This document shows, one piece after another, positions 3,585 to 56,967 of a DNA stretch of 64,000 bases. The DNA lies in NCBI GenBank assembly GCA_016721875.1, contig JADKHG010000008.1, positions 24,390 through 88,389 on the forward strand, in the 5' to 3' direction. The notes beneath the pieces were generated by a model. The model was given only the letters and a program-made list of their open reading frames with translations, had not been told where the DNA came from and ran no database searches. The DNA comes from Sphingomonadales bacterium. Lineage in GTDB: Bacteria > Pseudomonadota > Alphaproteobacteria > Sphingomonadales > Sphingomonadaceae. A program made the translations under genes and the position numbers. Each line of letters opens with the position of its first letter. Within the stretch, counting starts at the first letter, position 1.

Positions 3585-4336
3585 GCATACCAGCCGACGC
3601 GTTTTTCTACATTGTCGCTGCCATTGCCGTCATATTGGTCGGGCTGGGCAAGGGTGGCTTTGCCGGGCTGGGTGCAGCGGCGATGCCGATCATGACATTG
3701 GCGATTGATCCGGTCAGCGGCGCTGCAATCCTGCTGCCGCTCTTCATTGTACAGGACGCAGTCGGGGTCTGGGCGTTTCGCAAGAGTGTGGATTGGCGGT
3801 TGCTTGGCTGGATGTTGCCGGGGGCGGCGGTGGGAACCTTCCTCGGCTGGCTGCTTGCGGCAAGCGTTGCGGTCTGGGTGGTCGAGGCGGCTGTCGGCGC
3901 GATAGCCATTGCCTTTGGCGCGAACCGGTTGCTGGCAGTGCGCGGAGGCGGGATGCGGTTGGCAAAGCCACAGCCAGAACCGGTCGGGCTATTCTGGGGT
4001 GGGGTGTCGGGCTTTACCAGCCAAATCGCGCTTGCAGGCGGGCCGCCCTTTCAAATCTGGGCGCTGAGCCGCAATCTGCCGCGCGATGTCTTTGTCGGCA
4101 CCAGCGCGCTGTTCTTTGCCGCGATCAACTGGCTAAAGGTGCCCGCCTTTTTTGCGCTGGGCCAATTTACCGAGCGCAACGGTACATTGTCGCTGCTGTT
4201 CCTGCCGTTGGCGATTGCCAGCACCTTTGCCGGTGTCTGGCTGGTTCGCCGCATTGCGGCAGAGCGCTTCCTGACCGCGATCAATCTGTTGATGGTCGCG
4301 GTCGGGGCAAAGCTGCTATGGAATGCGTTTGGCTGA
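3581..4336 (+). CDS. TauE/SafE (DUF81) family anion exporter
   Basis: Multi-TM ORF with GKGGFAGLG and GGPPFQIW motifs. Start set at TTG 3581 overlapping the SURF1 stop; ATG 3512 is the alternative. Confidence 0.65.
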   Translation: MSIPADAFFYIVAAIAVILVGLGKGGFAGLGAAAMPIMTLAIDPVSGAAILLPLFIVQDAVGVWAFRKSVDWRLLGWMLPGAAVGTFLGWLLAASVAVWVVEAAVGAIAIAFGANRLLAVRGGGMRLAKPQPEPVGLFWGGVSGFTSQIALAGGPPFQIWALSRNLPRDVFVGTSALFFAAINWLKVPAFFALGQFTERNGTLSLLFLPLAIASTFAGVWLVRRIAAERFLTAINLLMVAVGAKLLWNAFG

Positions 4337-54157: not shown

Positions 54158-55516
54158 ATGGCAAAAAAGACCCTGTGGAGCCGTGCGCGTGACATGGCGG
54201 AAAAGGCCCCGCCCGAACGCAACCGCTATGTCGATTTCCTGCGTGCTTTGTCGATCATGGCGGTAGTGGTCGGCCATTGGCTGGTGGCGGCGCCCTATAT
54301 GCAGGATGGCGCCGTGGTTGGCGGGCATTTGCTGGGGATCATCCCCTGGACGCAATGGCTGACCTGGGGCTTTCAGGTGATGCCGCTCTTCTTCCTCGTC
54401 GGCGGCTTTTCCAACGGTATGAGCTGGGCGGCGACCCAGCGTAAAGCCTGTCCTGAGCCTGGTCGAAGGAGCGGCCATTATGCCGACTGGTTCGGCAGCC
54501 GGGTGCAACGCCTGATCAATCCCGTCCTGCCGCTGTTCCTGATCTGGACGCTGTTCGCCGCCTTTGGCACCGCGCTGGGCGTGGAGCGCGGGGTTGTGAA
54601 GATGGCGGCGCAATTGGCGCTGGTGCCAGTGTGGTTCCTCTCGGTCTATCTGATGGTCTCGGCACTGGTGCCGCTGACCTGGAACCTGTGGCAGCGTTTT
54701 GGCCTTGGCTCTTTCTGGGGCTTTGTCGTGGGCGCAATTGCCGTTGATGTGCTCAGCATCCATTTCGGCGTGCCCTATATCAATTTCGCGAACTTCCTCT
54801 TCGTCTGGCTGGGCGTGCACCAGCTGGGCTATGCCTGGGGCGCGGGGCGTATCCGCAATCCCTGGGTCTGGGCGGTGTTCGGCGCGATTGCGCTCGAAAT
54901 GCTCGTCTATTTCGGCCCCTATCCGGTAGCGATGATCGGCGTTCCGGGCAGCGAGCTGAGCAACTCGATGCCGCCCACGCTCGCGCTGTTCGCGCTGGGT
55001 GTGGCACAGGCGGGGCTGGCGCTGGCGCTGGAAAAGGCCGGACGGCGGATGCTGGATACTATGCGCATCTGGACCGCGACCGTCCTCCTCAACGGCATGA
55101 TCATGACGGTCTATCTCTGGCACCTGACCGCCTTTGTCTTTGTGATGGTTGCGGCGTGGTTGCTGGGTGGCATCGGTCTGCACAGCGCGCCCGGCAGCGG
55201 CGCATGGTGGCTCGCCCGACCGATCTGGTTCGCGCTGTACATCGCGATGCTCCTCCCGCTGATCGCCCTCTTTGCGCGGTTTGAGGCAGCGCGTGGCATG
55301 CCCGACCGCGAAGCCCCCGTGCCGCACTGGCGGCTGGTCACCGGCCTGATCCTGACCTGCGCCGGATTGGCCTTCACCGCCGCAATCAGCATCGCAAGTC
55401 CAGAGGGTGTGACGGGCGTGAGGTTGTGGGTGGTGGCGCTGCCGTTTGTGGGGGCGGCACTGATCGGCTTTGGCCCGGTGCGGGATTTGAGTAAAAAGGT
55501 GAGTGGGGCAAATTGA
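54158..55516 (+). CDS. acyltransferase family 3 membrane protein
   Basis: 452 aa, about 10 TM. N-terminal RNRYVDFLRALSIMAVVVGHW. Confidence 0.8.
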   Translation: MAKKTLWSRARDMAEKAPPERNRYVDFLRALSIMAVVVGHWLVAAPYMQDGAVVGGHLLGIIPWTQWLTWGFQVMPLFFLVGGFSNGMSWAATQRKACPEPGRRSGHYADWFGSRVQRLINPVLPLFLIWTLFAAFGTALGVERGVVKMAAQLALVPVWFLSVYLMVSALVPLTWNLWQRFGLGSFWGFVVGAIAVDVLSIHFGVPYINFANFLFVWLGVHQLGYAWGAGRIRNPWVWAVFGAIALEMLVYFGPYPVAMIGVPGSELSNSMPPTLALFALGVAQAGLALALEKAGRRMLDTMRIWTATVLLNGMIMTVYLWHLTAFVFVMVAAWLLGGIGLHSAPGSGAWWLARPIWFALYIAMLLPLIALFARFEAARGMPDREAPVPHWRLVTGLILTCAGLAFTAAISIASPEGVTGVRLWVVALPFVGAALIGFGPVRDLSKKVSGAN

Positions 55517-55643
55517 CGCCCCGGTTGACATTGCTGATCGGTAAGCCTAACGGCCACCACCTTATGAAGACGACCAAACTATACCAACTAGTCAATCGAC
55601 CCGTCAGCTGGAGCTGACACGGGCGTTTCGTTGCGCCCGACAT

Positions 55644-55724
55644 TCGGGTGCGGCGCGGTATGGTAATAGCGTCAGGTTTTTCCTTAAAACCTAAGCCAAG
55701 CAGGTTCGATCCCTGTCACCCGGA
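55644..55724 (+). ncRNA. tRNA-like element immediately upstream of rtcB (non-canonical cloverleaf)
   Basis: Folded by eye. Acceptor 55644-55650/55717-55723 (7 bp, one U-G). D stem 55653-55656/55669-55672 with a GG-containing 12-nt loop. 7-bp stem 55674-55680/55686-55692 with 5-nt loop UCCUU. 7-nt variable region. T stem 55700-55704/55712-55716 with loop TTCGATC. It lacks U8, an encoded CCA and a 7-nt anticodon loop. Confidence 0.5.
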
Positions 55725-55749
55725 CAAAGATTTATCCAGGAGACAGATT

Positions 55750-56967
55750 ATGCAGATCATACAAGGAAACAAGGGCGGCCTGATCAAGGCTTGGATCGAC
55801 GGCGTTGGTGTCGAGGCGCAGGCACGCGCCCAGCTTGACAACATCGCCGCCATGCCTTTCGTCCACAAGCATGTGGCGATCATGCCCGACGTGCATTGGG
55901 GCATGGGCGCAACCGTTGGCTCGGTGATTCCCACTAAAGGGGCGATTATCCCCGCGGCTGTGGGCGTGGATATCGGCTGCGGCATGATGGCGCACCGGAC
56001 CTCGCTGAACGCATCGGATTTGCCCGATAGCCTCGCCGGCATTCGTTCTGCAATCGAGGCGGCGGTACCGCATGGGCGCACCAATAATGGTGGTCCCGGG
56101 GATCGCGGCGCGTGGGGCAGCGTACCCGACGCCAATGTCGATCGCATCCGCCCGCATGTCGAGGCGCTGAAGGGGTTGGCTGAAAAGCATCCCAAGATCG
56201 CGCAAGCCAGTGAACGCGCACCGACCCATGCGGGTACGCTCGGCACCGGGAATCATTTCGTCGAGATCTGTCTCGACGAGGAGGAGCGGGTGTGGGTGAT
56301 GCTCCATTCGGGATCGCGCGGCATCGGCAACAAGATTGGCACCTACTTCATCGAGAAGGCCAAGGCCGAAATGCGGCGCTGGTACATCAATCTTCCCGAT
56401 GAGGACCTTGCTTACTTCCCCGAAGGGTCGGGCCTGTTCGACGATTATTGGGAGGCTGTGGGCTGGGCGCAGGGCTGGGCACGGTTGAACCGCGAACTGA
56501 TGATGGACGCGGCGATGGCGGCGCTCAGCAAGGCGGTACCCAAGCCATTCACTACCGATTGCGAGGCGGTGAACTGCCACCACAACTATGTCACCCGTGA
56601 AGCGCATTTCGGGGACAATGTTCTGGTGACCCGCAAGGGGGCGGTGTCGGCGAAGGAAGGCGAAATGGGGATCATTCCCGGATCGATGGGCGCCAAGTCG
56701 TTCATCGTGCGCGGGAAGGGCAACCGGGACTCCTTCTGCTCCTGCTCTCACGGGGCAGGACGCGCGATGTCGCGTAACGAAGCGAAGAAGCGCTTCACGC
56801 TAGCCGACCACGCCGCGGCAACCGCCGGCGTCGAATGCCGCAAGGACGAAGGGGTAATCGACGAAACCCCCGCGGCCTACAAGGATATCGACGCCGTAAT
56901 GGCCGCGCAGGCCGACCTTGTGGAGGTGATGCACACGCTGAAGCAAGTTGTATGCGTCAAGGGTTGA
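55750..56967 (+). CDS. rtcB: RNA ligase RtcB
   Basis: Start ATG 55750 behind AGGAGA (55738-55743). The track ORF start at GTG 55648 would read through the tRNA-like element. Motifs [22 protein letters not shown]. Confidence 0.95.

Follow-up and report, generated by a model that had tools for sequence, protein, structure and literature searches.

Introduction

How bacteria switch on rtcB, the gene of an RNA repair ligase, is to our knowledge understood only for the enterobacterial RtcR/sigma-54 system, and most rtcB genes that we know of occur without RtcR. Here, we analysed an rtcB locus on a stretch of 64,000 nucleotides (nt) from a Sphingomonadales bacterium (assembly GCA_016721875.1, contig JADKHG010000008.1, positions 24,390 to 88,389 of the forward strand), which we call the window and number from its first letter. 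In this window, a tRNA-like element of 81 nt (55644-55724) lies upstream of rtcB on the same strand. Our analysis suggests that the element descends from a proline tRNA gene and that it may have been kept because it serves, in the rtcB mRNA leader, as the 'ON' fold of a switch made of RNA.

Several described systems come close to this arrangement. YrlA RNAs (RF02553) of rsr-yrlBA-rtcBA operons are likewise non-decoding tRNA mimics with a conserved T loop, encoded upstream of rtcB on the same strand. In contrast to the window element, which has the normal tRNA order, lacks a Ro60-binding stem and has no rsr nearby, they are circularly permuted (T arm, closed acceptor hairpin, D arm), form a Ro60-binding stem from their two ends and accompany rsr. 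Translational attenuators such as those of ermC, cat/cmlA and the PA5471.1 leader of armZ combine a short 5' open reading frame (ORF) with mutually exclusive helices, the last of which hides the Shine-Dalgarno sequence (SD) of a gene answering to translational stress; the first hairpin has the critical codons at its foot, and the stop codon is in the second segment. The rtcB leader of the window is predicted to have all of these traits, the response to translational stress being part of our proposal, and the logic also resembles that of trp-type multi-segment attenuators, with six segments here compared to four. Unlike in the erm and cat attenuators, the upstream ORF (uORF) of the rtcB leader is seemingly leaderless, the regulated gene encodes an RNA repair ligase, and the anti-sequestor would be a whole tRNA (in one relative, locus L177) or a tRNA-shaped relic (in the window) instead of a simple stem. 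Finally, the thrS operator of E. coli is a tRNA-like leader near the ribosome-binding site that controls translation, and Ames et al. reportedly noted in 1983 a comparable resemblance between the his leader and tRNA-His. Operators of the thrS type imitate an anticodon arm for recognition by the cognate synthetase, whereas the window element has lost the anticodon arm, conserves the acceptor/T half and appears to derive from a real tRNA gene. Literature searches on rtcB and leader peptides, whose coverage did not extend to one key review, yielded no description of such an rtcB leader, and no Rfam family covers it (E<=10, 55400-55900).

Results

The element upstream of rtcB ends 25 nt before the rtcB start codon (ATG 55750) and comprises the following parts.

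55644-55724, plus strand: tRNA-like element, delimited by its isolated fold, conservation and covariation (a probable tRNA-Pro relic)
55644-50 with 55717-23, plus strand: acceptor stem as drawn on the sequence, UCGGGUG with CACCCGG
55653-72, plus strand: D arm, stem GCGC/GCGU, loop of 12 nt
55674-92, plus strand: hairpin in the place of the anticodon arm, 7 base pairs (bp) and a 5-nt loop, AGGUUUU-UCCUU-AAAACCU
55693-99, plus strand: variable region of 7 nt, AAGCCAA
55700-16, plus strand: canonical T arm, GCAGG-UUCGAUC-CCUGU
55724, plus strand: A73, CCA not encoded

Folded in isolation, the 81 nt adopt the cloverleaf as their minimum free energy (MFE) structure (-27.8 kcal/mol), with acceptor, D and T arms and a hairpin at the anticodon position. 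This agrees with the initial annotation, made from the sequence alone, which had described an 81-nt cloverleaf carrying a 7-bp/5-nt arm, C8, a 7-nt variable region and no CCA. A 5-bp anticodon stem with a conserved 7-nt loop (U33, anticodon, purine 37) is absent, as are the tertiary nucleotides U8, A14 and G18G19: positions 8-9 are C8 G9, position 14 is G14, and the GG found in the D loop of the window is missing from the relatives L162, L165 and L163, G18G19 being unconserved.

ARAGORN at default settings called zero tRNA or tmRNA genes in the 64-kb window and listed the element as a sub-threshold 'tRNA-Arg(CCU)' when relaxed (-ps80). In Rfam searches of 55400-55900 at E<=10, the sole match was tRNA-Sec with 17.3 bits (E=1; gathering score 47, that of tRNA being 29), and no family attained its gathering score anywhere in the window. 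A decoding tRNA, considered unlikely from the start, is ruled out by the default ARAGORN result, the Rfam scores and the unconserved 'anticodon' loop. A T-box riboswitch was rejected as well, given that 55400-55900 contains no corresponding Rfam match at E<=10, that a terminator is absent and that the leader is tRNA-shaped, not tRNA-binding. The kinship with the Y-RNA-like RNAs of Salmonella considered in the initial annotation did not hold: RF02553 gave no match in 55400-55900 even at E<=10 (gathering score 69), while as a positive control it scored 69-80 bits on sequences upstream of rtcB in 11 further loci, where the YrlA of L031 and L019 runs in the order T arm, acceptor hairpin, D arm. 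The window element has the unpermuted arm order and no rsr, and YrlA or another Y RNA was thus rejected. A tblastn search of the 64-kb window with the L178 TROVE protein detected no TROVE gene, and neither did Pfam among the neighbouring genes; the same searches bear out the initial statement that rsr, rtcA and rtcR homologues are missing from the window.

It is because of the comparison across relatives that the case for the element goes beyond chance, as the folding energy of the 106 nt from 55644 to 55749 is in itself unexceptional (z=-1.36; 17/200 shuffles are equally stable). Our sample comprised 160 rtcB loci from genome and metagenome contigs, to which we added 18 loci around the closest RtcB proteins (80-94% identical); loci are designated by L numbers. 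These relatives are mostly uncultured Pseudomonadota known from metagenome-assembled genomes (MAGs), with Caulobacteraceae as the nearest named taxa. Alignment of the rtcB upstream regions, as had been proposed in the initial annotation, revealed the element at the same site in six distinct relatives (L161-L166, RtcB 89-94% identical), which together with the window we call the window group, and revealed compensatory changes in its stems. Conservation is strongly uneven: 16/17 columns of the T arm are invariant, compared to 8% in the D loop, 18% in the anticodon-like arm and 23% in the linker to the SD, and a U at position -1 is present in every leader of the window group. The anticodon-like arm is a hairpin in all of these relatives, with stems of 4-8 bp and loops of 4-6 nt that are unrelated in sequence (UCCUU, CCAG, AUUGA, AUAA, UUUUG, UUUGUU, ACCA), and one of its changes is a compensatory replacement of U-A by C-G. 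In a hand-made alignment of the seven elements and L177, fitted to the structure, 99.4% of cells are paired and six pairs changed on both sides, a result matched by 0/500 shuffles. The tRNA-shaped element is real and not an artefact, and its uneven conservation and the persistent pairing of its anticodon-like arm indicate a conserved structured RNA without an anticodon.

The origin of this RNA is best seen in locus L177 (RtcB 83% identity, a metagenome contig of 395 kb), where the same leader carries a canonical tRNA-Pro(UGG) at the homologous site, called by ARAGORN, scoring 63.4 bits on RF00005 and equipped with U8, A14, G18G19, a UUUGGGA anticodon loop, A73 and an encoded CCA. L177 thus has the whole leader in common with the window. 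Further tRNA-Pro(UGG) genes beside rtcB (L025/L105, L130, L043, L153/L160) share with L177 and the window element the acceptor features C/U1-G72, GGGUG/CACCC and A73, the T arm GGUUCGAUCC and the placement relative to rtcB. Among 83 distinct tRNAs from all loci, tRNA-Pro accounts for 8/9 top matches to the acceptor and T arm of the window element, with 27/32 identities to the rtcB-adjacent tRNA-Pro(UGG) of L153/L160; C1-G72 or U1-G72 together with A73 are features that we take to fit tRNA-Pro. Unlike a canonical tRNA-Pro, the window element lacks a 7-nt anticodon loop, a UGG anticodon and CCA, has C8 for U8 and a 7-nt variable region, fails tRNA detectors and carries a 12-nt D loop that follows the uORF sequence. 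Descent of the element from a tRNA-Pro(UGG) gene in the rtcB mRNA leader is thus well supported by sequence comparison, and the simplest history would be that a tRNA-Pro was co-transcribed with rtcB and lost decoding in several lineages while parts of it are still under selection.

A tRNA-Pro gene, mostly with UGG anticodon, stands <=400 nt from rtcB on the same strand in 8/12 loci having an adjacent tRNA (L025/L105 at 2857-2933, L130 at 2349-2423, L083, L043 at 4185-4260, L153, L160 and L177 at 2407-2479). These loci span unrelated lineages (Sphingomonadales, Acidobacteria, delta-proteobacterial MAGs), and the tRNA lies either between a sigma-54 promoter and rtcB or directly 3' of rtcB. The linkage is far above chance and suggests a specific functional link. 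L083 was tried as a further case of the leader architecture and discarded: it starts with a similar ATGGAAACGACC, but its frame runs into a tRNA-Gln. L008 (24-2921, a Blastocatellia MAG) has 23 tRNA genes for most amino acids arrayed upstream of rtcB on its strand, the array stopping about 50 nt short of the gene.

The element sits inside a conserved leader of about 190 nt with the following features.

55525-55553, plus strand: putative sigma-70-type promoter, TTGACA 55525-30, 17-nt spacer, TAACGG 55548-53
55564-55617, plus strand: leader uORF, 17 codons and a stop, MKTTKLYQLVNRPVSWS*, no SD
55750-56967, plus strand: rtcB, 405 amino acids, Pfam RtcB with E=9e-131

Fourteen distinct leaders share the promoter spacing, the uORF, a first hairpin (H1), the GCGCCC/GGGUGC/CACCC repeats and the SD. 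Since the genes flanking leader and rtcB differ among relatives (acyltransferase, DUF3617, DXP synthase, BrnT/BrnA), the leader belongs to rtcB. A -35 motif (TTGACA/TTGACC/TTGCNN) with 'TA' 17 nt further on keeps a constant distance to the uORF ATG in 14/14 leaders, which would place the transcription start 2-4 nt before this ATG. Consensus scanning of the leader region gave a single promoter-like match; this is on the minus strand (55607-55578, CTGACG-18-TATAGT), lies within the uORF and H1 and is probably due to chance. In 12/14 leaders, the frame opened by the ATG is 17 codons long, and in the remaining two it has 15 and 18; the groups are separated by indels whose lengths are multiples of three, and the +1 frame closes at once. 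Arg-Pro codons are conserved within it (CGA CCC at 55597-55602, CGA CCN across leaders) and its stop codon is always located inside or just past H1, a pattern that would fit translation of the uORF.

No intrinsic terminator is predicted in the leader; transcription attenuation was thus rejected for lack of a terminator-like site, and we consider control of translation or processing instead. The rtcB start is marked by the SD AGGAG at 55738-42, 8 nt upstream of ATG 55750. The best 120 RtcB homologues are about 405 amino acids long, match the query over 100% of its length, from the Met of this ATG onwards, which rules out an extension of the coding region from GTG 55648, the start that according to the initial annotation would have made the element coding sequence. 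Downstream, the uvrB frame in its longest form (from TTG 56948) shares 20 nt with the end of rtcB (56948-56967), the true uvrB start probably lying further downstream; uvrB follows rtcB in only some relatives at 89-94% RtcB identity, depending on the contig.

Besides the cloverleaf, the leader can form a chain of competing helices.

55600-55623, plus strand: hairpin H1 (A:B), CCCGUCAGC-UGGA-GCUGA(CA)CGGG, holding the uORF stop UGA 55615-17
55620-55626, plus strand: segment B (CGGGCGU), alternative partner of C
55630-55640, plus strand: segment C, the 'anti-acceptor' (GUUGCGCCCGA), pairing with tRNA-like positions 1-11
55569-55585, plus strand: 5' strand of a long-range helix inside the uORF, GACG 55569-72 with CGUC 55670-73
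55578-85 with 55657-64, plus strand: uORF:D-loop helix, ACUAUACC pairing with GGUAUGGU
55713-55746, plus strand: SD-sequestering hairpin E:F, CUGUC.CC.GGA 55713-24 with UCC.GG.GACAG 55735-46, covering the SD

The chain builds on repeat blocks found throughout the leaders, B (CGGGCG), C (GCGCCCGA), D (UCGGGUGC, the acceptor 5' strand) and E (CACCCGG, the acceptor 3' strand), with exclusive pairings: C can pair with B or D, and D with C or E. H1 is predicted in the MFE structure of 14/14 leaders and was recovered by RNAalifold from an unbiased MAFFT alignment of the 14 leaders, with compensatory changes (columns 44-51: GC 7, UG 4, CG 2), while its stem sequences are wholly different between groups (GUCAGC, CCGUC, CCGCC, GCGCG). 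For the other pairings of the chain, we counted pairs in aligned segments of 12 distinct leaders. B:C is paired in 89.6% of cells and has two pairs with compensatory change, among them a C-G to U-A exchange in L166; its covariation score was reached by 2/500 shuffles. The C:D hairpin, 11 bp long in the window and likewise recovered by RNAalifold with compensatory changes, is paired in 89.4% of cells with four compensatory pairs (0/500 shuffles), and the acceptor stem D:E in 92.8% (0/500 shuffles), its pair 2-71 being A-U in seven leaders, C-G in three and U-G in two.

The long-range helix connects the D-loop region with uORF codons ~4-9 and occurs in the MFE structure of every leader. Its two strands vary together, as UAUAUCAAAC/GUUUGAUAUA in L162, AAACUUUACC/GGUAAAGUUU in L168, ACAAUCCAAUU/AGUUGGGUUGU in L175 and CUCUACC/GGUAGAG in L177. 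An earlier RNAduplex test of cognate pairs with 30-nt windows was too noisy and was rerun with narrower windows and a run-length statistic; in this permutation test on 11 distinct leaders, cognate uORF:D-loop pairs exceeded non-cognate ones both in run length (P=5e-5) and in energy (P=1e-4). The D loop is thus variable because it tracks the uORF and not the tertiary rules of tRNA.

At the 3' end, strand E, made up of the T-stem 3' strand and the acceptor 3' strand, is predicted to pair with the SD in the MFE structure of 14/14 full leaders, leaving the SD core an unpaired probability of <=0.25. The E:F stems are invariant in the window group while the A-rich loop of 9-12 nt varies, and in other groups variant SDs face a matching E (CUCCA/UGGAG, CUCCU/AGGAG, CCCUC/GAGGG). 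Of the hallmarks of an attenuator, mutually exclusive helices including one over the ORF are therefore seen here with covariation or complementarity above controls, and a final helix sequestering the SD is predicted. The predicted ground state of the full leader does not contain the cloverleaf. When the uORF was masked in silico, the MFE structures of L170, L173 and L175 flipped to B:C plus D:E, and the predicted accessibility of the SD rose from 0.06 to 0.49, from 0.25 to 0.60 and from 0.00 to 0.29, respectively. The tRNA of L177, the uORF, the complementary segments upstream of the element and the pairing of its 3' strand with the SD are points that the initial annotation did not contain; its suggestion of a cis-regulatory leader, one of several options offered, gains support and is extended by the uORF, the competing helices and the SD pairing.

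Discussion

How could such a leader work? We propose a translational attenuator in which a ribosome stalled on the uORF allows the tRNA-like fold to form, which in turn frees the SD and switches rtcB on, and we assign this model a probability of roughly 0.5. The transcript would begin 2-4 nt ahead of the 17-codon uORF. In the OFF state, which would be the default, H1 (A:B), C:D, the uORF:D-arm helix and E:F form and the tRNA shape is unfolded: uORF codons 2-8 pair up with the D arm, segment C holds the acceptor 5' strand and positions 8-11, while the 3' strands of T stem and acceptor mask the SD, so that rtcB would remain untranslated. The Arg-Pro codons lie at the base of H1, and a ribosome stalled near them would occlude A together with (part of) the long-range uORF strand, B staying free. 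B:C could then form and release the acceptor 5' strand, upon which D:E and the T and D arms would assemble into the cloverleaf and expose the SD. A ribosome proceeding to the uORF stop codon would instead cover B and restore C:D. In this way, rtcB would be induced upon translation trouble or tRNA damage, and the leader would stand in for the enterobacterial RtcR/sigma-54 control. Selection on the T arm is indicated by the 5' strand of the T stem and the T loop, which are invariant in 11/12 columns though they lie outside every helix of the OFF state.

The switch might be extended by RNA processing. An acceptor/T-arm minihelix is the minimal substrate of RNase P, and this minihelix is the best-conserved part of the element. 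Cleavage by RNase P at the minihelix (U at -1) could remove the inhibitory upstream segments and lock the leader in its ON state; in L177, the same cut would also free a spare tRNA-Pro. The complete relay, in which stalling at Arg-Pro, brought about by tRNA-Pro scarcity or damage or by ribosome damage, unmasks the tRNA-Pro fold and frees the SD, RNase P makes the induction irreversible and L177 releases its tRNA-Pro(UGG), is a tentative idea that we believe to be rather less than evenly likely.

Several observations weigh against the attenuator. In L168-L176, L001 and L081 (RtcB 84-87% identical), the leader is kept while the T arm or nearly all tRNA features are gone, the loss falling between the two acceptor-like strands; because these relatives retain the rest of the leader, the full tRNA shape seems to be dispensable for it. 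In the window itself, the OFF structure is predicted at -48.2 kcal/mol compared to -36.7 kcal/mol for ON, and in the window group C:D and the SD hairpin survive both masking of the uORF and removal of the 5' part, with an SD accessibility of 0.25-0.33. With OFF lower than ON and no flip in the window group, the switch would need kinetics, tertiary contacts, a protein or cleavage, and equilibrium folding neither proves nor disproves it for the window. The covariation was drawn from 12-14 related sequences in partly hand-made alignments, most helix positions are invariant, and B, C and D are G/C-rich repeats. A promoter scanner called no plus-strand promoter in the leader region, the -10 motif being weak against the E. 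coli consensus. Variable sites of the uORF fall 3, 8 and 6 times on codon positions 1, 2 and 3, without a clear third-position bias, and the frame could be kept merely as an RNA strand.

Among the other explanations, the element might be an excised, stable tRNA-like small RNA (sRNA), freed by RNase P and a 3' endonuclease and acting in trans with RtcB. A conserved acceptor/T-arm minihelix, A73 and a U at -1 are what RNase P requires, and all of these are found in the leaders of the window group, followed by a 3' flank that is A/U-rich and single-stranded. The arm that replaces the anticodon loop would escape an anticodon nuclease. In favour of such an sRNA, YrlA RNAs stand upstream of rtcB in many other loci, and a decoy role has been discussed for YrlA (PMC7790460). 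For a free sRNA, however, the upstream complementary segments and the SD pairing would be superfluous, the ground state predicted for the full leader does not contain the cloverleaf, and relatives without the T arm keep the leader. We therefore consider an sRNA as the sole function rather unlikely, while noting that it is compatible with the switch, in which its release could be the regulated step.

Alternatively, the leader may act as a processing or stability element without any sensing by the uORF, in which a cut by RNase P or RNase Z/E either fixes where the rtcB mRNA starts or makes this mRNA less stable, while the upstream frame would be untranslated and serve as an RNA strand only. Intra-operon tRNA genes and tRNA-like structures are known sites of RNase P cleavage, tRNA-Pro directly adjoins rtcB in several unrelated lineages that lack this uORF, and the codon-position pattern of the uORF is not clearly coding. 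On this account, it would be hard to see why a 17-codon frame is kept in 12/14 leaders with indels in threes, why its ATG lies at a fixed distance from the -35 motif and its stop always at H1, and why the six-segment chain with Arg-Pro at the foot of the first hairpin mirrors the classical ribosome-mediated attenuators. Processing alone thus appears unlikely to us.

Could the element simply be a tRNA-Pro pseudogene in decay, drifting and without function for its cloverleaf, its conservation explained by short divergence and by overlap with the leader? Indeed, rtcB and its leader persist in sister lineages in which the T arm is gone (L168-L176) or hardly anything of the element is left (L001, L081). 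The D-loop nucleotides G18G19 are unconserved, C8 replaces U8, and the scores stay far under the tRNA thresholds. Neutral decay would nevertheless not be expected to leave a T arm with 16/17 invariant columns next to a D loop with 8%, an anticodon-like arm with 18% and a linker with 23%, to keep the anticodon-like arm paired through compensatory and length changes, or to match changes of the D loop in the uORF. We accordingly regard functionless decay as quite unlikely.

A protein-binding operator modelled on that of thrS, a mimic of tRNA-Thr, in which RtcB, ProRS, a tRNA modification enzyme or an EF-P-related protein sets SD accessibility, is very unlikely in our view. In its favour, the preference of ~11 kcal/mol for OFF means that the tRNA shape needs a stabiliser, and T loop, acceptor stem, G72 and A73 are features recognised by proteins. 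Against it, the anticodon nucleotides G35 G36, the main identity element for ProRS, are absent and the arm is variable, no candidate gene for a binding protein is linked to the leader across contexts, and the uORF and the B:C helix would be left unexplained.

Other rtcB genes of the sample carry leaders of different kinds. YrlA lies directly upstream of rtcB in L028, L053 and L079 (two copies each) and in L009, L014, L017, L019, L020, L031, L048 and L060; rtcB-linked YrlA often occurs in tandem pairs, and its hosts are Sphingomonadales, Acidobacteria and other MAGs. In L178 (864-6218, 80% RtcB identity), a cluster of TROVE/Rsr, a small ORF, RtcB, Hen1 and Pnkp is found without the uORF/tRNA-like leader. 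Another conserved leader precedes rtcB genes of the Caulobacterales type by about 200 nt (L010-L013, L018, L021, L027, L033-L035, L042, L075, L077) and consists of a block 'GGUCUAGGGUUCG..CUGAACUCGGGA', a terminator-like hairpin GAACCCCUCC..GGAGGGGUUC, a U-run and 'GCCAGGAGGGG'. For this leader, searched in L010, no Rfam family matched at its gathering score, and it may represent a second, unrelated rtcB attenuator or riboswitch. In L015, L025, L037, L046, L047, L050, L070, L072 and L130, a conserved and perfect hairpin GGCGGCCGGAAUGGGCCGGCCGCC lies just before rtcB or tRNA-Pro, and the sphingomonad leaders with this hairpin have a sigma-54 promoter (TGGCAC-N5-TTGC) upstream. In L173 (1667-4631), the leader described here and its rtcB lie between a BrnT/BrnA pair upstream, BrnT being a ribonuclease toxin, and an IS200-type Y1 transposase downstream, which suggests that leader and rtcB form a mobile unit.

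If the proposed attenuator is true, it would be a second and mechanistically different control of rtcB, one that reads the state of translation via a uORF and a tRNA-derived fold. At the same time, it would clearly exemplify the exaptation of a tRNA gene into a regulatory element of an mRNA, with intermediate stages seen in living lineages: an intact tRNA-Pro, an anticodon-less cloverleaf and a bare long-range stem. Should the relay hold as well, the leader would act as an RNA-only sensor of damage to the translation apparatus, the functional equal of tRNA-fragment sensing by RtcR/CARF, and would help to explain why tRNA-Pro(UGG) and rtcB are repeatedly linked in unrelated phyla. This recurrent linkage hints at a physiological substrate, or a threat, that is specific.

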